Origin: a virus
Taxonomy: Duplodnaviria > Caudoviricetes
Length of the DNA: 64,000 bases
IMG/VR virus record: IMGVR_UViG_3300033463_000013
Location: 96,001-160,000 of that record
Reading direction: 5' to 3' (one strand)
Of this stretch, positions 17,058 to 58,583 are shown in pieces; position 1 is the stretch's first letter, and every line of letters begins with the position of its first letter. A program made the position numbers and the translations under genes. The notes beneath the pieces were generated by a model that ran no database searches, was not told the DNA's origin, and saw nothing but the letters and a program-made list of their open reading frames with translations.

Positions 17058-17096
17058 AAAAAATAAGCCCTCTCTTTCGAGAGGGCTTTATTTTTA
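17056..17096. terminator. Bidirectional intrinsic terminator between the convergent arms
   Basis: Stem AAGCCCTCTC (17065-17074), loop TTTC, GAGAGGGCTT (17079-17088), with an A-tract on the left and a T-tract on the right. Confidence 0.9.
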
Positions 17097-17474
17097 TTCT
17101 TGTATAAAATCTTCAATTAGTATTATTTTTGATGGCGCGATTTCAATATTTTCTAAATCTTCTAATGGAATCGGCTCGGCATCAATACTAACTACAGTAT
17201 TTAATAATGAAGCAATTTCTTCATTAAATTCATTTACTTTTGTAGGTAGGATTTTATAACTATTATTTTCTATTATTGGATTATCATTTTCATCTTTTTC
17301 AGAATAAGTATTAATTAATTTTGTACGTCCTTCATTAAATAATGACAGCTCTTCTTCAACTTTTTTTAATAGTTTAGCTACATGATAAGCCGTTCTACCT
17401 TTAATGGGACTATCTGATAATTCTTTTAACACATCTATACTATTGATAATGGTTAATAATTTAACTTCAATCAT
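17094..17474 (-). CDS. Hypothetical phage protein, 126 aa
   Basis: Clean ORF, TAA stop; its start overlaps the stop of the upstream resolvase. Confidence 0.75.
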   Translation of the reverse strand: MIEVKLLTIINSIDVLKELSDSPIKGRTAYHVAKLLKKVEEELSLFNEGRTKLINTYSEKDENDNPIIENNSYKILPTKVNEFNEEIASLLNTVVSIDAEPIPLEDLENIEIAPSKIILIEDFIQE

Positions 17475-18226
17475 TATATATCTTCACCCCATGTGGCTTT
17501 ATTTGCTTTAATTTTGCCGCAAAAATATTTTCCAATACAAATTGCATCTGACTCATCTTCAGTGCAATCCATATCATACCAAACTTTTACTTTAGCTTGC
17601 GCCTATTTTTTTTGAGCATCGCGGTGCTAATCTCCACCTGCAATACCACAATATGCTCTCCATTCTTTTGAATACACTAATTCGTGTTCTATACCAGCTT
17701 CATATACTACATCTAGTATCACTCCCTATAAATTTGCGAGTGTCTAAAATGTTTTAACCTAAACATCTGTAGCTTTCTCGCCGTATTTCTATAATTGAAT
17801 ATTCTCAATTCCAACGAAGTCTGGTTCCCATTCTTTTAATGCAGCTTTAAGCCAATTTTTTACTTGATTAATACGATCGGTCGCTGGTAAGGAGGAATTT
17901 GTTTTAAAAATTCCATATCCGACCAGTACTTTATTATCATATATTGCATAGCCTGTGATGCCTGTTGCGGCATCTAAGGCTAGAATACGCTATGTATCTG
18001 TACCCTTTTTGGGTACTTTATTTTTTTTGACTTTATATGGATCTCCGGCCATACAAATATCACAAATTTTATGTTTACGCCACTAATCGAATGTCTATTC
18101 CTATTTATGCCCCGCTGGACAAATTATTTCAATCGGAGTTTTAAGATTCTTATAAACTTCGCTTACTAATTTCCATCCTTCCGCTTCCAAGGCATTTTTT
18201 ACAACATAAACATTAATTGTACTCAT
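17474..18226 (-). CDS. RuvC-like Holliday junction resolvase with N-terminal Zn-finger, 250 aa (10 in-frame TAG)
   Basis: Missing from the ORF track. With TAG=Gln it reads MSTINVY...ICPAGHK...CDIC...RILALDAATGITGYAI...FVGIENIQLQ...EDESDAICIG, matching RuvC catalytic D, E and D-x-x-D motifs; both ends overlap neighbours. Confidence 0.85.
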
Positions 18227-19023
18227 TATTTATCAGTACTTCCGAAACCGCCTTCACCGCGATCGGAGTCAACTAAAATATCAACTACTTTAGCTTGGAA
18301 GCGATAGCTTGGCATTACTAGTAGTTGTGCAATACGATCACCGGCATGAATTTGATAATCTTCATCAGAAGTATTATCATAAATAACTCCTAATTCACCA
18401 CGATAACCGCTGTCAATAAGTCCAACACTATTGCTTAAACGTAATGGAGTTTTTAGTCCAATACTAGAACGAGGAAGAATAAAAGCTAGCCATCCTTCCG
18501 GCAATTGAATTTTAACTCCAGTTTTTATCATATTGCTATAAGAATGTGCTGGAATAGTTTGATCTTCTTTTGCGTATATATCCGCCGCAGCGTCCGTCTC
18601 ATGCGCATATGATGGGACTTGTGCGCCAATATTAAGTGTTAGCGGTAAAACAATATTATAACTATGATATTTTTCTACCGCGGTGTCAATAACTTTTAAC
18701 ATTGAATCCATAATACCGTCAATTAGAATCTTCTTATTACCTGTATATGGTTCATCAGTATAAATAGATTCATTTAAAACATTTTTTAATGTATTTGCTG
18801 AATTAATAACTTCTTGCTTAGTTAATCCTTGCTGTTCAAAGCCATTAATTAATTGTGTTACAGATTGATTAATCATTGCTGGAGAAAAACTTTGCTTAAA
18901 CTGTGCTTGTACTAATGTCATTACATCATCAGTTAAAGTATCTTCATCTAATTCTGCCATTTCTTTAATCGCATCTATAATACTACCCAATTCAGTTCCT
19001 TCAAATTCATTCATTTTATTCAC
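18226..19023 (-). CDS. dut: dUTPase (trimeric type) with N-terminal helical extension
   Basis: Motifs AAADIYA, PRSSIG, GLIDSGYRGEL, GDRIAQL, RGEGGFGST. Confidence 0.93.
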   Translation of the reverse strand: MNKMNEFEGTELGSIIDAIKEMAELDEDTLTDDVMTLVQAQFKQSFSPAMINQSVTQLINGFEQQGLTKQEVINSANTLKNVLNESIYTDEPYTGNKKILIDGIMDSMLKVIDTAVEKYHSYNIVLPLTLNIGAQVPSYAHETDAAADIYAKEDQTIPAHSYSNMIKTGVKIQLPEGWLAFILPRSSIGLKTPLRLSNSVGLIDSGYRGELGVIYDNTSDEDYQIHAGDRIAQLLVMPSYRFQAKVVDILVDSDRGEGGFGSTDK

Positions 19024-19026
19024 CTC

Positions 19027-19233
19027 TTACTCAAAAGTCTTTTCAATGGTAACCTTATATTCAATATATAAGATTTCACCTTTTGACTTCTTTGGTTTAG
19101 CAGTATAACCAGATTTAGTTACTGTATAGCCTTCTGATACTGCTTTTTCCTTTGCTTCTTCAATCATATCCATGGCTTCTTCTTCACTATCAGTTAGCCA
19201 TACATCAGTTTTCTTCAGTAGTTGTCTCGGCAT
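19027..19233 (-). CDS. Hypothetical protein, 68 aa
   Basis: ORF in operon context, TAA stop. Confidence 0.65.
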   Translation of the reverse strand: MPRQLLKKTDVWLTDSEEEAMDMIEEAKEKAVSEGYTVTKSGYTAKPKKSKGEILYIEYKVTIEKTFE

Positions 19234-19627
19234 TTTCTTCTTTCTCCTTATTTAATTTTCTTAATTTTTGAATTAAATCTATATAATTAAGTTTTTTTGC
19301 TGTTTCACTCACTGCGCCAATTACATCTCCGCTATCGGCTACCATTTCAGCATACTTCTTCGCGCCAACTTTCTTTTTAAGTGCGCGCCTTTGCGCTCGA
19401 TTCATTGGCACTCGAGTACTATTGATTTTCTCAATAGTTTTGTCTTGAATCTTTTTAAGAACTTCCTCAGGAGTATTCGCACCAATCTGCTCACGCGCTT
19501 CTTCTGTAGTAATATTCTGAATTTGAGCAAATCGCTCAATAAGTTCATCTACTGTTAAGTCTGCTTTTTCCTCTTCGGGAAAAGCATCATCAATTGGGTC
19601 CATCTTTGCTCTTAAACCTCTTTCCAT
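19205..19627 (-). CDS. Hypothetical protein, about 140 aa
   Basis: Start moved to the ATG at 19627 behind a GGAGGA RBS; contains an MNRAQRR motif seen in phage proteins. Confidence 0.7.
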   Translation of the reverse strand: MERGLRAKMDPIDDAFPEEEKADLTVDELIERFAQIQNITTEEAREQIGANTPEEVLKKIQDKTIEKINSTRVPMNRAQRRALKKKVGAKKYAEMVADSGDVIGAVSETAKKLNYIDLIQKLRKLNKEKEENAETTTEEN

Positions 19628-19628
19628 A

Positions 19629-20573
19629 TTATCCTCCACCACCAGAATTCTTATTATAGCCAAATTCCTATGTCTTAAAGAACTCTATGTAGTATTTTTC
19701 AAGTTCATTTAATTTATCTTTATCAGCATAGGTGATAACTTCAATCGTCCAATTCCAAAATCCTTCTTTTAGTATTGCATGATGTACAGCTTGATCTGCA
19801 ATTGACTTTATTCCAATTGCGCTTTTAAAGTGGTCTGCTATACGCTTCTTAACATCTGTACTTTTCCCAATATAAGCCATTCCATTTTCTAGACTTGTAA
19901 GTTTATATATTCCTGGCTCAGTTTTAATTTCAATCCGCTTGAAGGTATCCTCTATATTGGGTTTAACATATTCTGACCAAACTAATTTACTTATTATATC
20001 TGGATGTTGTACTTTCGCCGCGACAGTAGTAAGTAAGAACTCAATATCATCTTGATATTCTTCAGGTAACTAAATAGTATAGAATAAACGTTCTTGCTTT
20101 TCTTTTTCATACTGTTTAATTGGTTCAAGTAAACTTTCATACTTCTATTTTTCTTGATTTACTTTATTCCAATATTGAGCCGCTTCATATTCTGTTTCTG
20201 CTTTAGTATTTTTTAATATCTCATCTAAACGTGAAATTTCATTATCAACGTCTTTCTATTTAGATTCAATTATTCTATTTAGATCTTCTTGACGATTTTT
20301 CCGCTATCTTTCCATGGAAGCGTCTATTTCTTTAAGTCTATTATCGGTTATATCTTGATATACATCTAATGCTGCTTGTAAGTCCTTACGACATTCTTCA
20401 AGCTTATATTTTTCGTAATCAATCTATTCATCTAATACTTGTTTTTCTGCTTTGGTATCAATTAATTGATTACGATATTTATCAAGTTCAGTTCTATCAA
20501 TTTTCTATTTTTGATAAAGTTTATATCCTAAAAATATTATTATAATAAGGCATCCGATTATAGCATATATCAT
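19629..20573 (-). CDS. Membrane-anchored coiled-coil GIY-YIG nuclease, 314 aa (7 in-frame TAG)
   Basis: With TAG=Gln: N-terminal hydrophobic helix MIYAIIGCLIIIFLGYKLY, long coiled coil, then GIYKLTSLENGMAYIGKSTDVKKRIADH...ELEKYYI...QEFGYN; TAA at 19629. Confidence 0.8.
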
Positions 20574-20603: not shown

Positions 20604-20632
20604 ATTATAACAAAATTTTTTTAAATTGTCAA
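20604..20632 (-). promoter_or_regulatory. sigmaA/sigma70-type promoter
   Basis: TTGACA-17 bp-TATAAT on the minus strand with an extended -10 TG. Confidence 0.8.
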
Positions 20633-21192
20633 GTGTTGGATTTTAATCCTTGGGCACTGAAAAATATTCCACCAATAATATTTCCTGTGATTGTTAAAAG
20701 TAAGTTCCAACTAAAAATTCCGCCCGTTAACATATAATAGAAATCAGCAATACAGTGATTAAATCCTGCTAGAATAAAAGTAGCAACTGCTAATACTGTG
20801 ACCCATAAAGGAGTTTCTTTATAAGTTGCCAATGACATTAACATTCCGCAACCTATTCCTTTTAAAAGAGCGTCAGTCCAAAGTTGACTTTGTTTGGCTA
20901 ATGCAATTGACTGTGCAGCTTCATGTATAAGTGGAATAGACCAACAGGCTATAATTGCTACTCCAAAAAAATTACACAGTAATATTAATGGATAATAGTA
21001 CCAAGTATTTTCCTTTGTTATCATATATTGAACTTTTCCTGTGAACAGGTGTAATCCATATAGACGCACAGTTAATAATCCACAGGCAAAAAGCACTGCT
21101 CCAATAATGTGGTTGGGCGCGGAAAGATACGCCCAACCTCCTAATGCTATGGCCATTCCTGCGAATACCGCTCTTGATAATTTATTTGCCAT
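20629..21192 (-). CDS. Formate/nitrite transporter (FNT, FocA-like) family protein, 187 aa
   Basis: About six hydrophobic helices; FNT-like motifs AGMAIALG, GLHLFTGK, KGIGCGMLM, GFNHCIAD, GNIIGG. Confidence 0.8.
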   Translation of the reverse strand: MANKLSRAVFAGMAIALGGWAYLSAPNHIIGAVLFACGLLTVRLYGLHLFTGKVQYMITKENTWYYYPLILLCNFFGVAIIACWSIPLIHEAAQSIALAKQSQLWTDALLKGIGCGMLMSLATYKETPLWVTVLAVATFILAGFNHCIADFYYMLTGGIFSWNLLLTITGNIIGGIFFSAQGLKSNT

Positions 21193-47858: not shown

Positions 47859-48377
47859 TTATTTTGTCTCCTTTAAATTATTAATTTGGGATTGTAATTC
47901 TTGCATTTTATTATTGATTGCATTTGTAACACATGATGGAATATTTTCCCAAGTTTTAGTAATAGAATTCCAGTAATCACTACCACCAGTATTTAATCCA
48001 GAATTACCTGTATAAATATCATTATCGACTTTAACATTATAGGCAGTTATATTATCTGATTTACAAGTATTACTATCAGATGTGCATACCGAACTTGGCG
48101 CTTTCCATATAGGACCACTTTCTGGATGAATTCTAAAAGTGTCTGGACTACAGGTTACTTCTTTCCACCACTCTGGTTTATATGTCCAATCTGAAGTGAT
48201 TGTCCAATTATTTCCATTACAATCGCATTGTCTTACCCAAGGCGCATTAATACGCTTACAACGTGGACATTCCCATCCTTTTTCTGAGTTATAATCTGGA
48301 TAATATTTCCATGTATAGTTAGTACTAGTTGAAGTTCCAGTAGTTGAATCTCCAACCTAAACTTTATCTGTTGTCAT
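47859..48377 (-). CDS. Hypothetical Cys/Trp/Thr-rich protein, 172 aa (TAG at codon 7)
   Basis: Not in the ORF track; AGGAGG RBS; MTTDKVQVGDS...GWECPRCKRINAPWVRQCDC; TAA at 47859; fills the gap. Confidence 0.7.
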
Positions 48378-48981: not shown

Positions 48982-49857
48982 TTAATAATTAGTTACTAAT
49001 ACTTCAATAGTTGGTTCAGTTGTTTTTGTTTTATTATATACTGCTTTAGAATAATCAGAAAATATATCATGTACATTATATTTTTCTGACCATTCAATTA
49101 AAGCTACATTTTCTTTTCCTTTATGGGCTACTATATTAGATACGGCCCATTTAAGTCCTTGCTCATTTGCTTTATCTAGGAAAGCATATAAATCTATATC
49201 ATCTTGTATATCCCATTTACTATTAATTGCTCGAGGCCCTGTATTATATTGAGCATCAGAAATTAAATATGGTGGGTCTACATATAAAAAATCATTAGAA
49301 TCAGTAAATTTACTTATATCAAAATTTCTAAAGTCTATAGAAGAAAATTGAATGCCTTGAATAGCTGCGTGCATCGCTCTTGTATTTGCGCGCTAAGTTA
49401 AATTAAAATCTGAATGATTTTGACCAAAACTACTATTATATTCATGATTTATATTAAAACTTATTTTATTATTAAATGAAAATCTAGATAATACAAATAA
49501 ATCTAATGGGGTATGATATTCTGGATTCGTATTATATAAATCTCTATATTTTAAAAATCCTTCAGCATTAAATCTTGTCAGCTGAAACTCTTTAATACGA
49601 GCATTTATAAACTCCATGATTTCATCAATAGTTTTATTCTAAAATGCTTTATAGATATCAATAATATTAGTATTAATATCATTGGCATATTTATAAGTTG
49701 CTATAGTATTAATAGATACATCAGTACCACCACAAAATAAATCAATGAAATTATTTATATTAGTGGGAAATAAAGGATATAACTATTTTAGTAGTTTATA
49801 TTTATTTCCTACATAATTCATTGGACTTTTTATAAAAGCAATCTTATTCTTCGTCAT
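48982..49857 (-). CDS. Dam/D12-class N6-adenine DNA methyltransferase, 291 aa (3 in-frame TAG)
   Basis: With TAG=Gln: IKSPMNYVGNKYKLLKQLYPLFP...FIDLFCGG...ANDIN...FLYVDPPY...EVLVTNY; TAGs at 49783, 49639 and 49393. Confidence 0.88.
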
Positions 49858-50122
49858 TCTCATCATCATCCGATAGTAAGAATTCAAGAGCATCTGCAAA
49901 TGTATTACCACGGCTCTTAGTATCTTGTACAGGCTTTGGACGGAAATAGTTATTATATACATAACTTTTTACCATTGCAAACATACTGGAAGAACTATCG
50001 CGTGGATGTGATTCTACATATTCTCTAAGTTTCTTTTTATCTTCTTTAGACATTTTTGCGATGAAGTCTTCGACAACTTCACGAGTTAAATCATTAAATT
50101 TAAGTGGCTGTTGATTTTCCAT
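49844..50122 (-). CDS. Hypothetical protein
   Basis: ATG at 50122 with AGGAG RBS downstream of a promoter. Confidence 0.65.
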   Translation of the reverse strand: MENQQPLKFNDLTREVVEDFIAKMSKEDKKKLREYVESHPRDSSSSMFAMVKSYVYNNYFRPKPVQDTKSRGNTFADALEFLLSDDDENDEE

Positions 50123-50413: not shown

Positions 50414-51667
50414 TTAAATTGGTGGCCTTATTTTATCACAAAGTGCAGCAACTGGGCCACGCTCAGATTTTAATAACTTAACCGCACCAAATAATGGGTC
50501 TCCAGCTAGACGGTCTAACATTGCTCTTATACCATTATTTTTTTCAAATTTTCTATGGTCAATTTGGGCAACATCACCGCAGAAGATAATTTCACTATCC
50601 TTTTCAATACGGCTCATTAAGAACGTGACTAACTTATCATTCATATTTTCACATTCATCACATAATACTATAGAATTAACAATTGAGCGCCCACGCATAT
50701 GTGATAATGGATAAATTTCTATTATTCCATCATCAATTAATTGGTCCAGCATTTCTTGTCCACCTAAGTGGTCAGCTAACGGCGCGCCCCAAATTGACAT
50801 TTTATCACGCATATCTCCAGGTAAAAAGCCAATGTCATTTGTATCAGCAACAACTATATTATTACGGACAAATACTAATTTAGAATAGGCACCTTTATGT
50901 ACTTGTTCTAGAGCGTAGGATAATGCAATTAAAGTTTTTCCGCTGCCCCAAGCACTTGTTAATAGTTTTACTTTAATATCCTAATTCTAAAGTAAATGAA
51001 AAGCCATTTTCTATTCTAGATTTCTTGGTCTAATAGTTTCTTGAATATATGGATTTTTTATTTCTTTATATTTTAAAGGTCCATACTAATGTCCGTCCCA
51101 AAATAATACATCTTTTAGTTCGGTTTTATCGAATATTTCAGCAAATTCATTTGTTTTACAACCTAAACAATTGATTTTAGGATCGGCATACAGTAATGTC
51201 ATTTCTTTTTCATTAGGATAATATTTACCCCAGCCTGCCCATTCTTCTTCTTTACGAAAAGCTAGTTCTTCACCCATAGGATACACAGGGTCTACATGAG
51301 GTAATTGTTGTGCAAATAAATATTGTAAAGCATCGCTAGTTAAAAATATAACATCTTTACTCTATTCAATTGCCATAGCTTCTGCCGCAAGTAATATTCT
51401 ATGATCATTAATATTACTTAAAAAACGATATTTTTTTAATAGTTTATCAATAACTTTATTATCTGGCATAATTACGTGTAGCTTATGGCAATTCATGATT
51501 GCACGAACGGCTTCACGAGCCATATATTTTATGCTTTTATCCTCTTCATGTTCTTTAATATATTCTAATTCTGAAACTGTTAATGGACTAATTGCGATAT
51601 CTACTTCTGAATTTATTAATCCACTCTAGTGTAAAAGAGCAGATGTGTCTGCAAAATGTGTAATCAT
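50414..51667 (-). CDS. phoH: PIN-domain PhoH family ATPase, 417 aa (6 in-frame TAG)
   Basis: With TAG=Gln: PIN domain (FADTSAL, TVSELE, NDHRIL, LTSD) plus PhoH (IRPRNLEQ, AWGSGKT, IGFLPG, HMRGRS, DECEN, CGDVAQID). Confidence 0.88.
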
Positions 51668-52281
51668 TATTCATCAACTCCGATGATTTTGTCAATCAGG
51701 TTCTTTTCCTTCATTTTATCTGCGAATAAGAACCACTGATGCCTGGCGTGCTTATCATATTCTTCAGCTGTCAAATCGGTATTATCTAAAAAGAATTGAC
51801 GAATTTTTTCATCAATTTCATTATTAAATGCCATAATATCAGCTGCAGTTTTCGATTCTGCTGCGGCAAGAGCGACATAACCATCATGAATTAGAACATA
51901 CGAACAAGGATAACAAGAACGAATTATATTTTCATTTTTTCCACCAGCAGCTAATAATACAGTTGCCATGGAACAAGCATATCCTAATACTTGAATATTT
52001 AATGGCTTAGAATATTGTGCTAAATAATATGCTAAAAAGAATCCATCAGAAACTGAACCGCCGCTACTATTAAGAATTAATGTAACTGGCTCATTAGAAT
52101 CATCTTGTTCAAATGCGCGAAGTGGCAAATAAACATATTCTACAATATGTTCTGATATATCATCATTTAATATAATTGTCCTATGGTTTAATAACTGGTC
52201 ATAATACTAATACATTACAGGACTAAGTTCTGTAGCATTAAGTTTTTCCCAAATACCGGAAAGTAGGTCTTCTAAATCCAT
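51667..52281 (-). CDS. ClpP-like protease, 204 aa (TAG at codon 25)
   Basis: RTIILNDDI, LILNSSGGSV, YACSMA (Ser), VLIHD (His); AAGGAGG RBS at the extended start. Confidence 0.85.
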
Positions 52282-55685: not shown

Positions 55686-58583
55686 TTACATTTCAACATT
55701 TCCTAGCGTTTTATTAATACTATTCATAATATCCATTAATCCAGCTAAAAATAAAATTTTTAATTGGACACCTTGAGATACACGAATACCAGTAGTTAAC
55801 CATGCATTTCTATCAGCTGATTGAATATGCTCTTTATATGGTCTATTAGGAACTAACTCTTCTGAAGCTGGGTTGATGATAGTAATACCTGCACCAATTT
55901 TTTGTGGAATTTTCTATATATTAGTAATAACATCTTGCTATATAGAATCTAATGTACGCTTAAGTACGGTAGAACCAGTTACATATATACCATTTACATT
56001 ATATAAATGTAAAATTTTTCTACTATTGTGTTTTCCAGTCTAAATAATTTTATCTGATAAATTATCAATGATTTTTGCTTCTACACCACCCTCATCAAAT
56101 AGTGCGAAAGCCATTAGTGATCCTAAATATTGTTCTATACTATCTTTGTTCTTTTCTCCAACCATAGATTCTGGGAAACAGTTAATAATAGCTGATTTTA
56201 ACCAAATCATATCACTTGCAGGAATTTCTAATCCCGCAGATGAAAAAATATCAGAAATATTAGATAATTGCTAATCTAAGTGACCACCAATATTACCACC
56301 AACAAAACCTAATTGATTGACATAATCATTATGAGATTTTACAGTAGTGGATACATAGAATGATGATTGTAGTACATTAAGAAATTCAGTACGATATTTT
56401 TCAATCTCTTTTTTACCGCTTGCATCATCGGTATTTTCTTTTAAATAATTTATATATTTATTAACGGCTTCTTCTAATTTATTATAAGCTATTTTTATAT
56501 TTTCATCTAAGTCTTTTCCATCTTTATCTAAATTTATTCTATTTAATATATCGGTATCTAGCACAGTATCCATTTTTGAATATCGTTGACTATCTTTATG
56601 TAATGAATCGGCCTATTTATCTATTACTTTTTGATATTCATGTAATAGATTTATTTGAGCTTCTTGAATTTTTGCTTCCATTTCATTTATTACTGTATCA
56701 TCCACAAGAGCATATACAAGTGCTTTATTTCGAACTTTACTTTTATCAATCAATATATGGACACTATCATTTTTTCCACGCGTTTGGTTCCACGTAATTG
56801 CTCCACGATTAGATTGACGAAACTATAATGTTGTCATTAATTCTGCAAGCGCGGGTCCATCTATAGATATATTTAATGAACGTAATTCCTATCTTACTTC
56901 AGAAATTAATCTATCTTCAGATATACCAAAATCGCTTGATTTTAATGCAGTAATAATATTTTGACGTAAAATTTTTGATGCTCGCGATTTTAAAGTCTAT
57001 AAAGTAGAGGTTAATGTCTATGCATTAAAAGATTTTAATGCAAAAGAATCATAACGATTATCCTATTTTAATGCTACAATTAGAGAGTCCTAGTCTATTT
57101 GTACTTTACCATTAACAACCATAATTTTAATAGTCGCTTTTGCATTTTTTGAAAGCTTGATTTCTTTCTAAAAATCTATTTCTGTTTTATGTAATTTTTT
57201 TAATTTAGCATCATATTGTTCTTGAAATTGATTCACTTTTTTTCTAATTTTTTCTATTTCATGTACTAATGAAACAATATTATCTGTACGTTCTAAAATT
57301 GTTTCATCAGTAGGAGCATTTGATTTAGCCATGGCTTGAATTAAATATGATTCAGATTTTTTAGGATTTTTCTATATTGTACTTTTTTCTTCTTCTATTA
57401 ATTTAGATACATAAGAAAATAATTCTATAGCTGATTTTTTTTCTAATTCTGCAATAGAAGTAATATCATTCATTAATTCTGGTGTTTTTACATTGCGTCC
57501 AAATGTAGTATCTAAATTAGTAATATTTAATTCAGTTGTCATATCCAATACACCGTTATCATCTATATTACGCATAATATTTTTTTCTATTTGCTTAACT
57601 AATTCTTCAGAAATTGCTTGATTCATAGTCAATTTTAAATCATGTATACCATAATCAATAATGACCTAAATTATTGATTCTTGTACTTCATCATTTAATA
57701 ATTTAAAATTTCCATTAACTGGATACTATTCTTCTATTTTTTTTGCTAATTTATTTATAAAATTACTATCAGACGAAACTTTGGCAATCATCTATTCGAT
57801 CCAAGCCGCGAAGTGTTTAGAAATAGTTTGATTAGCTATACTTTGAATAGATTTTCCTCCGTAAAGAATTGCCCTTCCTGTCTTTTTATCTATACGACTT
57901 AACTATTTTTTTTCTGTATATTCGACTAAAAATTTTCTTTGCAGCCTATCTTGAGCATTTTGTCTCATTATTTCCTATAATTCATTAGATTTACCTTTAC
58001 TATACCCAACACCCGCTGCCTAATTTCCTCTACCCTTAATAATATGTTCTACTTGTTTCTAGACAGCTTCAACACGTTTCATTTCTGTATTAAGAATAGT
58101 CTTCATATTATCTTGTCCTTGTAGAATTAAATTACAAAGACTATTAATTTTATCTTTAGGTACAATTCCACTTTCTGAACTAGTATTAATTGTATCTTCT
58201 AAATCTTTAATTTCTTTAATTTTTTCACGCTCTTCTTTAGTAAAATTCTTACGTAAATCTTTTATCATAAGATCAAAATACTATTTTTCATTTGCATATT
58301 CATATGCTATAGCTTTCTATAAGAAAGCTACTATTTGTGACATTTTATTTAAAAAATAACTGTCGTGTTCATCTTGTGTCATACCAGGAAGTACTGAATG
58401 ACTTACCGCATCCATAGCCGCAGTTGCAGCACGCTCACCAGCCAAGTCTACATTCCATGCGCTTTTTGTGTTTTTAGATTTAGAATCGGCCCAAGCATAT
58501 TTAGTTAGACTTTTAAAATAAACATAATCTGGTGACCATCCTTCGTAGAAAGCCAAGTTACCAGCCTAAGCAAAGGTTGCCAT
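55686..58583 (-). CDS. Large hypothetical protein, about 965 aa, TAG-rich
   Basis: Fragments 58317-58556, 58059-58268, 57372-57632 and 56271-56573 are in one frame separated by TAGs; GGAGGTG RBS before ATG 58583; TAA at 55686. Not every intervening codon was checked. Confidence 0.75.

Follow-up and report, generated by a model that had tools for sequence, protein, structure and literature searches.

TAG-rich nuclease genes among TAG-free neighbours in a six-gene operon of a recoded rumen phage

Gut and rumen viromes commonly contain recoded phages, and we know of no experimental test of in-frame stop codons as timers of protein synthesis. Stop-codon recoding has been proposed to act in phages as a gate on the translation of late genes, and in the same study a recoded intron endonuclease within an early gene was proposed to be held back until late (Borges et al., 10.1101/2021.08.26.457843). 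Phage stop-codon recoding was also treated by Yutin et al. (PMC7886860). In the phAss-1 group of TAG-recoded gut phages, TAG is found mostly in virion genes and in several DNA-processing enzymes, with a pattern that varies among close relatives (PMC10607447). Delayed translation is also known from T4, in which I-TevI, segB, mobE and other late genes are carried on early polycistronic mRNAs and are kept from translation by RBS-sequestering hairpins, a block that is lifted on late-promoter transcripts (Edgell, Gibb and Belfort, PMC2988022).

The locus described here lies in a window of 64,000 nucleotides (positions 96,001 to 160,000 of IMG/VR record IMGVR_UViG_3300033463_000013), to which all coordinates refer unless given as genome positions. 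The source phage genome, from the rumen, is complete at 181 kb and assembles as a circle; its host is probably a rumen Firmicute. A blastn comparison with a phage collection turned up no annotated relative, and the similarity to Thomasclavelia and Enterocloster phages was at the level of NrdD only.

Genetic code and operon layout

TAG encodes glutamine in this phage and is never used as a stop. Among 164 genes called with a heuristic caller made for this analysis, 104 end in TAA, 60 in TGA and none in TAG, and in genes with a single TAG the sequence conservation runs on past that codon. Across 56 orthologue groups, 78 of 139 conserved columns opposite TAG are Gln, with Glu (18) and Lys (10) next, and the commonest partner codon of TAG in aligned orthologues is CAA (300, with 109 for CAG). 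ARAGORN placed a tRNA(cta) at genome position c[5318,5410]; it scores 53 bits as a tRNA in Rfam and has homologues in two relatives (G001 and G002) and a split copy in a third (G003). The gene sits downstream of a sigma70-type promoter, and searching the genome with Pfam yielded no release factor, no GlnRS and no Sigma70_r2 domain. Given this promoter, and with neither a release-factor nor a GlnRS gene found, a sharp code switch is an assumption. A structured leader RNA (cow-rumen-4) precedes the suppressor tRNA. Elsewhere, a sigma-like protein with TAG heads the structural block; its "sigma factor" label comes from a PHROG match only, Pfam giving none.

The operon is read from the minus strand in the order GIY-YIG nuclease, p140, p68, dUTPase, RuvC-like resolvase and p126:

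20604 to 20632, minus strand: operon promoter, TTGACA, 17-nt spacer and TGn-extended TATAAT, a 12/12 match to sigma70
19629 to 20573, minus strand: GIY-YIG nuclease, 314 aa (Pfam PF01541, E 7e-9; PHROG 314, E 4e-20)
19205 to 19627, minus strand: p140, TAG-free, with 6 Gln codons; it starts 1 nt past the GIY-YIG stop, at an ATG with a GGAGG Shine-Dalgarno motif
19027 to 19233, minus strand: p68, TAG-free
18226 to 19014, minus strand: dUTPase, 262 aa, with an N-terminal extension (Pfam PF00692, E 9e-26); 14 Gln codons, 0 TAG
17474 to 18226, minus strand: predicted RuvC-like resolvase, 250 aa (Pfam PF02075, PHROG 827)
17094 to 17474, minus strand: p126 (PHROG 1401), TAG-free; its start overlaps the RuvC stop (TAATG)
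17065 to 17088, bidirectional: intrinsic terminator, 10-bp stem with 6 GC pairs and T-runs on both sides

An earlier note, made from the sequence alone, had described this as a tightly coupled run, which was borne out by the 12/12 promoter, the TAATG stop/start overlaps at both dUTPase/RuvC and RuvC/p126, and the strong terminator. The promoter, located about 25 to 30 nt 5' of the GIY-YIG ATG, is kept in 22 of 22 relatives with 0 to 1 mismatch and a variable spacer. The terminator separates the operon from a convergent TAG-rich 1744-aa gene, and a strong hairpin with a T-run is present 35 to 45 nt 3' of p126 in 17 of the 18 relatives scanned. Promoter, overlaps and terminator, the first and last of them conserved, support a predicted single transcription unit of six genes, and no conserved strong promoter was found before RuvC in the relatives. 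The genome has 61 near-consensus sigma70 promoters, among them that of the operon, which is of the same class as the promoter preceding DnaE. Such promoters also head TAG-rich late blocks, however, so this class does not prove early transcription.

TAG accounts for 17 of the 34 Gln-type codons in the two nucleases vs 0 of 22 in the other four operon genes (Fisher p 4e-5). The RuvC-like gene has 10 TAG, 4 CAA and no CAG, with TAG at codons 42, 44, 48, 79, 146, 156, 161, 167, 200 and 208. The GIY-YIG gene has 7 TAG, 12 CAA and 1 CAG, and its first TAG is codon 23 as counted from a Shine-Dalgarno-supported ATG. The TAG counts and first positions in both genes, and the absence of TAG from dUTPase, p68, p140 and p126, agree exactly with what had been noted before.

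Pfam and PHROGs confirm the identities of RuvC, GIY-YIG, dUTPase, NrdD and NrdG. The RuvC-like protein has an N-terminal Zn-ribbon-like motif followed by the RuvC domain, and its profile match lies above the curated threshold (PF02075, 26.9 bits, cut-off 22.2; PHROG 827, E 1.7e-21), which makes it a predicted Holliday junction resolvase; a PDB sequence search gave no match. The motifs LALDAAT, GxENIQLQ and DExDAICIG are invariant in its orthologues, as are D85, E141, D224 and D227, which by motif position form a putative catalytic tetrad (Asp, Glu, Asp, Asp). Some of its TAGs occupy invariant Gln positions. We rejected a pseudogene or split gene, since 250 codons hold 10 TAG but no TAA or TGA, the domain extends across the TAGs and the gene itself is conserved. 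At 10 of 14 codons, its TAG content is within the range of late genes, one of which has 12 of 17.

The GIY-YIG protein is laid out as an N-terminal membrane helix, a single helix of about 140 residues, a small helical domain and a C-terminal GIY-YIG domain. When aligned to the I-TevI catalytic domain, it has the GIY, YIG, KR..H, E and GYN elements, all of which are invariant in 14 orthologues. A PDB sequence search with the domain gave a best match of only E ~0.1. In Foldseek, the AlphaFold model (pLDDT 78) gave a TM of 0.69 with I-TevI and of 0.62 with UvrC-N, at weak E-values (4e-3 to 1e-2), which confirmed the fold but did not separate Slx1, UvrC and homing-enzyme types. Motifs and model together place the protein in the GIY-YIG nuclease superfamily, with the predicted catalytic Arg, Glu and Asn residues present.

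TAG status in relatives and across the genome

The expectation that orthologues in related phages would keep their TAG status held in both close and distant relatives. Over 22 to 23 close relatives, the TAG fraction of Gln-type codons is 0.41 in GIY-YIG and 0.44 in RuvC, vs 0.016 in dUTPase (4 TAG among 244 codons), 0.024 in NrdD, 0.026 in p68, 0.04 in p126 and 0.11 in p140, the least strict of the TAG-poor genes. The relatives' NrdD, dUTPase and p140 do carry occasional TAGs, and TAG-free status is not absolute. RuvC has 3 to 13 TAG in 22 of 23 close relatives, with four truncated copies counted, and GIY-YIG has 3 to 14; in every close relative both genes stand in synteny, and their identities resemble those of their neighbours. 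The RuvC of one relative (G005, 0/16 TAG) is uninformative because TAG makes up only ~0.1 of Gln codons in that phage's late genes, and 0/16 is not unusual there. TAG falls in 27 alignment columns across 24 RuvC sequences. Because individual sites turn over this quickly, the lack of TAG in the operon neighbours reflects purifying selection. Orthologues were also concordant in TAG status over whole genomes (Fisher p 6e-11, 1e-9 and 3e-8).

Among more distant phages, TAG is present in RuvC at 35 of 38 recoded loci. At all 18 recoded loci compared, which represent at least 12 more distant clades, TAG is more frequent in RuvC than in the upstream co-directional replication genes, with pooled counts of 114/268 (0.43) vs 139/1152 (0.12). 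The RuvC tree shows 7 or more changes of code state. That RuvC is TAG-rich in many independent recoded lineages shows that selection sets TAG content gene by gene.

Genome-wide, the per-gene TAG fraction was checked for bimodality and is bimodal: among genes with 5 or more Gln codons, 47 are free of TAG and the others range from 0.08 to 0.71. The genome follows the model of Borges et al. in having TAG-rich structural genes and a replication block mostly free of TAG: the fraction is 0.27 and 0.40 in the two late blocks but 0.08 in the replication block on the minus strand, in which 67 of 78 genes (526 Gln codons) lack TAG. DnaE, RecJ, DnaB, GyrA, GyrB, ligase and RNase H are TAG-free with Pfam/PHROGs identities. 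Of the replication genes noted earlier as TAG-free, we did not identify a primase. Length, composition and expression level had been named as possible confounders; gene length, GC3 and a codon-adaptation proxy do not explain the pattern, as DnaE (0/59) and DnaB (0/15) have adaptation as low as RuvC. The proxy is nevertheless negatively correlated with TAG fraction (rho -0.39), and four probably abundant virion genes within the TAG-rich block are TAG-free in every relative and CAG-rich. Translation efficiency thus also shapes the TAG pattern, and TAG-free cannot simply be equated with early. In non-Gln synonymous codon usage, late and early genes are only weakly separated; a late-type assignment of RuvC and GIY-YIG on this basis was rejected, as both match their neighbours and the replication block.

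Other TAG-bearing genes, of which those for the 965-aa, PIN-PhoH and Dam proteins are further TAG islands, are as follows:

55686 to 58583, minus strand: 965-aa protein, 23 TAG, first at codon 6
51667 to 52281, minus strand: ClpP-like (prohead-protease-like) gene, one TAG, at codon 25
50414 to 51667, minus strand: PIN-PhoH protein, 417 aa, 6 TAG, first at codon 14
48982 to 49962, minus strand: Dam-type N6-adenine DNA methyltransferase, 3 TAG
47859 to 48377, minus strand: 172-aa gene, one TAG, at codon 7

The 965-aa gene, whose G001 orthologue has 30 TAG, lies downstream of a TAG-free 291-aa gene and that gene's sigma70 promoter. The TAG status of PIN-PhoH varies, as its orthologues carry 6, 0 and 9 TAG. 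First TAGs had been said to come early, and the positions given for the 965-aa, 172-aa, PIN-PhoH and ClpP-like genes hold once starts are placed by Shine-Dalgarno motifs, while codon 25 in Dam hangs on an uncertain start. As a general tendency the direction is above chance but the effect is weak: TAG is the first Gln-type codon of 25 genes in this genome vs 20.1 expected (p 0.09) and of 5 of 11 replication-block islands vs 3.3 expected (p 0.2), and three complete relatives lean the same way (p 0.21, 0.09 and 0.0007). The rule that TAG marks DNA-cutting functions was overstated, because RecJ and RNase H are TAG-free and Dam, PIN-PhoH, the ClpP-like protease and the 965-aa protein carry TAG. The islands have the same TAG fractions as ordinary late genes. 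Since they do, and since the 5' bias is weak, positive selection for a lock is not required.

A proposed translational gate and its alternatives

The best explanation, which we hold with moderate confidence, is that RuvC and GIY-YIG are held until the code switch while the co-transcribed TAG-free cistrons are translated. We infer early transcription, late action of the suppressor and a benefit of delaying the nucleases. Host RNA polymerase would make one mRNA, from GIY-YIG to p126, starting at the consensus sigma70/sigmaA promoter. As long as host release factor 1 prevails over the suppressor tRNA, ribosomes would halt at codon 23 of GIY-YIG and codon 42 of RuvC, and p140, p68, dUTPase and p126 would be made from the same message without waiting for the switch. 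Full-length nuclease and resolvase would follow only once the code switches. A late resolvase would fit the need to debranch concatemers before packaging; earlier, it would damage replication and recombination intermediates. Selection would remove TAG from genes needed before the switch and from the most heavily expressed virion genes, and TAG would drift to the late-gene level (~0.35-0.45 of Gln codons) where early expression is unneeded or harmful. TAG-rich nucleases stand beside TAG-free neighbours here and in many relatives, and the full-length enzymes are therefore probably made only late. The pattern fits TAG tolerance in late-only genes as well as it fits an evolved lock.

The same pattern might arise with no temporal gate, a possibility that we take seriously but consider rather unlikely. 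The suppressor tRNA would then be active from the start, as its sigma70-type promoter would allow, and TAG would be a slower or leakier Gln codon, purged where translation must be efficient or accurate and drifting up elsewhere through CAG-to-TAG mutation in an AT-rich genome. The quick turnover of TAG sites, the negative correlation with the adaptation proxy and the TAG-free, CAG-rich virion genes are consistent with this, as is the scarcity of CAG where TAG is common (148 TAG and 32 CAG in the relatives' RuvC; 4 TAG and 125 CAG in their dUTPase). Against it, DnaE, DnaB and GyrA (0/18) are strictly TAG-free at adaptation as low as that of RuvC. A 5227-aa gene with 144 TAG points to near-complete read-through after the switch, so that TAG would be cheap and its strong exclusion from the whole 68-kb block unexpected without a gate. 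The block-wise split, moreover, matches the early/late split in other recoded phages (10.1101/2021.08.26.457843).

Two further readings seem less probable. If each TAG loses some of the ribosomes to release factor 1, 7 to 10 TAGs could keep potentially toxic nucleases very low throughout infection, limiting amount and not timing. The islands do encode enzymes needed in catalytic amounts (RuvC, GIY-YIG, PIN-PhoH and Dam), and the TAG fraction of RuvC is as high as 0.71 here and 0.73 in L105. This is improbable, however, because giant virion proteins with 32 to 144 TAG must still be produced, the low-dose DnaE, RecJ and RNase H have none and the island fractions are no higher than those of late genes overall. 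It is very improbable that the operon picture misleads because RuvC and GIY-YIG have internal late promoters or are recent mobile, homing endonuclease-like genes from a TAG-rich source. The PHROG families matched by the GIY-YIG domain are labelled homing endonuclease, and weak promoter-like sites with 2 mismatches recur within the dUTPase region of some relatives. Homing enzymes, though, were defined here by catalysis at the N-terminus, DNA binding at the C-terminus and a distribution that is sporadic and insertion-like. The catalytic domain of this protein is C-terminal, behind a membrane helix and the 140-residue helix (coiled coil), and its gene has the same operon position in 22 of 22 relatives covering the locus, which led us to reject a mobile homing endonuclease. 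The synteny, neighbour-like identities and replication-block codon usage of both genes also argue against a foreign origin, and, with stop and start codons overlapping, a promoter has no space immediately in front of RuvC.

A broader form of the favoured gate, in which the code switch and not promoter switching is the master developmental timer of this phage group, is unlikely in our view. If it were true, one host-type sigma70 promoter class would serve early, replication and late units, with the presence of TAG timing each cistron. RuvC would be locked in every recoded lineage, premature junction cleavage being lethal to replication, and the sigma-like protein and the cow-rumen-4 leader would link late transcription and the switch in one circuit.

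Comparison with known systems

Because a single promoter and mRNA alternate TAG-rich and TAG-free cistrons, this operon is a natural test in which transcription is controlled internally. Block-wise multi-code gene callers will mis-annotate such TAG islands. The recurrence of TAG-rich RuvC nominates the resolvase as a function to keep off early, a problem that T4 solves by RNA hairpins. Work by Barth et al., cited in the review of Edgell, Gibb and Belfort, reportedly concerns T4 gene 49, the endonuclease VII resolvase.

Extending the gate to single nucleases, as the earlier note did, is not new in principle given the recoded endonuclease of Borges et al. The example described here is well supported, and its new part is the recurrence of TAG-rich RuvC. 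The words "resolvase" and "RuvC" are absent from the main text of Borges et al. (10.1101/2021.08.26.457843), and "resolvase" was not mentioned in a set of publications on phage recoding. The phAss-1 paper (PMC10607447) makes no mention of a resolvase and analyses neither operons nor patterns across clades; the phAss-1 dUTPase carries TAG in two genomes, whereas the dUTPase here is nearly TAG-free.

Like the phages of Borges et al., this phage reads TAG as Gln through its own suppressor tRNA and has TAG-rich structural genes and a replication block compatible with the standard code. Unlike their endonuclease, the TAG-rich genes here are core syntenic enzymes that alternate with TAG-free cistrons in one promoter-to-terminator unit, and the RuvC pattern recurs in at least 12 clades. 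In T4, DNA-cutting enzymes, one of the GIY-YIG type among them, share transcripts with early or middle genes but are translated only late, and a like delay is proposed here. T4 uses hairpins, whereas the block proposed here would be termination at in-frame TAG, lifted by the suppressor tRNA; the parallel is one of similar logic and not of shared ancestry.

Genome organization and the TAG codon

The phage genome is a single contig of 181,407 bp (GC 36%) with an overlap of ~48 bp between its ends, and it carries 30 tRNA genes, one of which has the anticodon CTA. The window covers its bases 96001-160000. When TAG is read as Gln, long broken frames join into genes. Genes were called with our own heuristic caller (longest TAA/TGA-bounded frames, a codon-usage score, and greedy overlap removal), giving the following layout in genome coordinates:

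0-44 kb, minus strand: structural block, TAG-rich
44-75 kb: small-gene array, TAG-free
75-113 kb, plus strand: terminase, virion proteins, and a 5227-aa gene (144 TAG), TAG-rich
113-181 kb, minus strand: replication and nucleotide-metabolism block

Strong AGGAGG ribosome-binding sites, TGn-extended -10 promoters, the likeness of NrdD to that of Thomasclavelia phages, and Rfam matches to cow-rumen-3, cow-rumen-4, and ROOL RNAs suggest that the host is a rumen Firmicute. The cow-rumen-3 RNA (L058:1062-1157, minus strand, 99 bits) and a full-length ROOL RNA (L063:6758-7347, minus strand, 277 bits) both adjoin the tRNA arrays.

The earlier note had assumed that TAG encodes Gln, and the relatives bear this out. 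Four relatives and this genome together give 56 orthologue groups, in which Gln is the partner of TAG in 78 of the 139 columns where other members agree, followed by Glu (18) and Lys (10), and the most frequent partner codon is CAA, two mutations distant. Genes end in TAA (104) or TGA (60), none requires TAG as a stop, and conservation runs on beyond isolated TAGs; together these establish the assignment. The suppressor tRNA(CTA) (L058:5318-5410, minus strand, identical in genome coordinates) is 93 nt long, with a long variable arm of type-II shape that is kept in relatives (85-86 nt) and a tRNA-Gln-like acceptor end (mismatched or weak 1-72 pair, G2-C71, and G73). Such a shape is unusual for a Gln acceptor, although TAG is clearly Gln. 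In one relative, G003, the homologue (L049:1729-1755 and L049:2053-2100; genome 101729-102100) is missed by ARAGORN and is interrupted exactly in its anticodon loop by ~297 nt, which may be an intron. Upstream of the suppressor tRNA, a sigma70 promoter leads directly into a 15-bp hairpin and T-run (L058:5788-5886, minus strand) that matches the cow-rumen-4 RNA (RF02948, 68 bits), followed by a TAG-free 114-aa Lys/Glu-rich gene and then the tRNA. Promoter and hairpin are kept, with compensatory changes, in two relatives (G001 and G002), and the hairpin could regulate the code switch, the proposed moment when the suppressor out-competes host release factor 1.

TAG-bearing genes within a single operon

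The minus-strand operon at window 17094-20573 comprises GIY-YIG, p140, p68, dUTPase, RuvC-like, and p126 genes, and the TAG counts reported for it all hold. The RuvC-like gene (window 17474-18226) has 10 TAG, 4 CAA, and 0 CAG codons and the GIY-YIG gene (window 19629-20573) has 7, 12, and 1, respectively, while the other four cistrons have no TAG in 22 Gln-type codons (TAG, CAA, and CAG; Fisher p 4e-5). Pfam and PHROGs agree on RuvC, GIY-YIG, dUTPase, NrdD, and NrdG, and both back the identities of the TAG-free DnaE, RecJ, DnaB, GyrA, GyrB, ligase, and RNase H. Of the 78 genes in the replication block, 67, with 526 Gln codons among them, are without TAG, and over the whole genome the share of TAG among Gln codons has a bimodal distribution. 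Two signals flank the operon:

window 20632-20604, minus strand: perfect sigma70 promoter (TTGACA, 17 nt, TGnTATAAT), ~25-30 nt ahead of the GIY-YIG start
window 17065-17088: bidirectional terminator, 10-bp GC-rich, separating the operon from a convergent 1744-aa gene

The cistrons are tightly packed, with the p140 ATG 1 nt past the GIY-YIG stop and TAATG overlaps connecting dUTPase to RuvC and RuvC to p126. Promoter hexamers have 0-1 mismatch in all 22 close relatives, with a variable spacer, and a strong terminator lies 3' of p126 in 17 of the 18 relatives scanned; no strong promoter ahead of RuvC is conserved. Genome-wide, 61 promoters lie within one mismatch of consensus, almost all of them between genes and co-oriented, and that of DnaE is of the same class as the operon promoter. 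Based on the conserved signals, the packing, and the DnaE promoter, co-transcription of the operon by the host polymerase is well supported at the sequence level. That transcription is early we infer more cautiously, since similar promoters also lead TAG-rich blocks.

Near-consensus promoters are dense at genome 50-73 kb (L060, L061). Those at 54-73 kb, where our caller yields few genes, have a ~20-bp palindrome (TTTAGGTGTCGACACCTAAA-like) ~7 bp upstream of the -35 box; replication-block promoters are without it. A ResIII/helicase-like gene (L060:11449-12996, plus strand; genome 51449-52996) with 14 TAG (7-14 in relatives) is the lone TAG-bearing gene amid the TAG-free early array, and a perfect sigma70 promoter lies inside the called ORF, directly ahead of its likely true start. 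The plus-strand TAG-rich block opens with a gene (L061:15545-16907, plus strand; genome 75545-76907; 440 aa, 9 TAG) that begins 11 nt past a perfect sigma70 promoter and matches PHROG 5767 'sigma factor' (E 2e-20) without Pfam support; its product may be a late sigma factor gated by TAG. Beside the operon, a compact TAG-free formate/nitrite-transporter-like ORF (window 20629-21192, minus strand; 187 aa; PF01226, E 2e-23) overlaps the nrdG end and is retained in 13 relatives.

The RuvC-like protein has invariant acidic motifs and an N-terminal Cys/His Zn-ribbon-like motif that contains the first three TAGs. The GIY-YIG protein has a conserved membrane helix, a TAG-rich single helix of ~140 residues, and a small helical domain ahead of the GIY-YIG domain, which is C-terminal and keeps its catalytic residues intact. 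Its gene comes first in the operon of every close relative with sequence there; this constant position, and a catalytic domain behind a membrane helix, led us to reject a homing enzyme. Read with the standard code, the gene would give an early product that scarcely extends beyond the 22-residue membrane helix, and in about ten relatives, not all, the first TAG directly follows that helix.

Conservation across close and distant relatives

An IMG/VR scan with the RuvC protein recovered 23 syntenic loci at 64-85% identity, and the same orthologues proved TAG-rich: RuvC has 3-13 TAG in 22 of 23 (four truncated copies counted) and GIY-YIG 3-14 in 22 of 22. Over aligned columns only, f(TAG), or TAG/(TAG+CAA+CAG), is 0.44 for RuvC and 0.41 for GIY-YIG, against 0.016 for dUTPase, 0.026 for p68, 0.04 for p126, 0.024 for NrdD, 0.05 for NrdG, and 0.11 for p140. 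RuvC sites are not fixed, with 27 TAG columns across 24 sequences swapping with CAA and CAG. Because TAG is freely gained and lost in RuvC and GIY-YIG yet kept from the cistrons between them, the alignments mean purifying selection against TAG at single-gene resolution. Gene-by-gene TAG status is concordant with three complete relatives over the whole genome (Fisher p 6e-11, 1e-9, and 3e-8), with variation in PIN-PhoH (6, 6, 0, and 9 TAG over four genomes). The sole close relative with a TAG-less RuvC, G005, is weakly recoded throughout (late genes ~0.1) and is thus no exception.

A profile scan extended this to 80 loci (RuvC at 31-82% identity), which fall into standard-code (RuvC 0 TAG) and recoded groups. 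The two are interleaved (RuvC loci L064-L142) on a quick maximum-likelihood RuvC gene tree, which gives no direction of change; code state changes at least 7 times on well-supported branches and 15 times by parsimony, so recoding has been repeatedly gained or lost. RuvC bears TAG in 35 of 38 recoded loci, and its f(TAG) exceeds that of pooled co-directional upstream genes in 18 of 18 representatives of at least 12 clades (114/268 = 0.43 vs 139/1152 = 0.12, pooled). In TAG over Gln-type codons, a typical locus, L112, reads 0/13, 0/30, 0/3, and 0/5 and then RuvC 8/20, and L121 has six genes summing to 0/63 and then RuvC 4/12. By these counts, these recoded phages generally have a TAG-free replication array that ends, on its 3' side, in a RuvC TAG island.

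Selection on TAG and comparison with known systems

Length and GC3 do not explain TAG fraction. Translation efficiency also excludes TAG. Four genes of the plus-strand TAG-rich block (genome 81154-84210 and 88061-89119; L062:1154-4210 and L062:8061-9119) are TAG-free in every relative and distinct in codon usage, three being clearly CAG-rich; one matches a virion structural PHROG and one is 95-97% identical in relatives. The four probably encode the most abundant proteins of the virion, which would avoid TAG. With these four genes as the reference set, a codon-adaptation index falls as TAG fraction rises (rho -0.39 over the genome, -0.33 within the replication block). Translation efficiency does not account for everything, since RuvC (index 0.50; 10/14) is adapted at least as well as DnaE (0.49; 0/59) and DnaB (0.48; 0/15).

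Whether TAG was selected for or simply tolerated is a separate matter. TAG-bearing genes of the replication block have f(TAG) of 0.12-0.71, within the ordinary late-gene range (0.08-0.71, mean 0.34), and one late gene with 12/17 TAG makes 10/14 in RuvC unexceptional after multiple testing. The claim that first TAGs come early stands only in part: there is a genuine 5' bias, but it is slight (TAG averages a relative position of 0.44-0.47, vs 0.49-0.52 for CAA/CAG, in four genomes). Genes whose first Gln codon is TAG, with starts refined by Shine-Dalgarno, number 25, 28, 36, and 28 in the four genomes vs 20.1, 24.9, 30.5, and 17.1 expected; among the replication-block islands here there are 5 of 11 vs 3.3 expected (p 0.2). 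CAG is scarce where TAG is common, as expected if C-to-T pressure turns CAG into TAG wherever harmless. The data are explained no worse by TAG being kept from pre-switch genes and drifting to equilibrium elsewhere than by positive selection for TAG, which tempers the idea of an evolved lock; both versions predict that RuvC and GIY-YIG would be made only late.

The interpretation in the earlier note is partly supported. Co-transcription and single-gene conservation of TAG stand, but the rule that nucleases as such are delayed does not: RecJ and RNase H are TAG-free, and Dam, PIN-PhoH, a ClpP-like protease, and a 965-aa protein carry TAG. From sequence evidence, we lean slightly toward a gating mechanism in which the code switch would confine synthesis to the late phase.

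Borges et al. (10.1101/2021.08.26.457843) reported that TAG and TGA recoding falls mostly on structural and lysis genes, with variable use in replication genes, and proposed that a preferentially recoded intron endonuclease within an early gene should be withheld until late. In phAss-1, TAG occurs in 'several DNA-processing enzymes' (PMC10607447). In the recoding papers searched, the Borges preprint included, we found no mention of a RuvC TAG island, and 'resolvase' is absent. In T4, early polycistronic mRNAs include the genes of the GIY-YIG enzyme I-TevI and other late genes, whose translation is blocked by RBS hairpins until late (reviewed in PMC2988022). This is a different route to the end proposed here. 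Barth et al., reference 60 of that review, reportedly dealt with T4 gene 49, the endonuclease VII resolvase. The present operon is a new, unusually clean case of a known phenomenon, and its new element is the recurrence of RuvC across clades.
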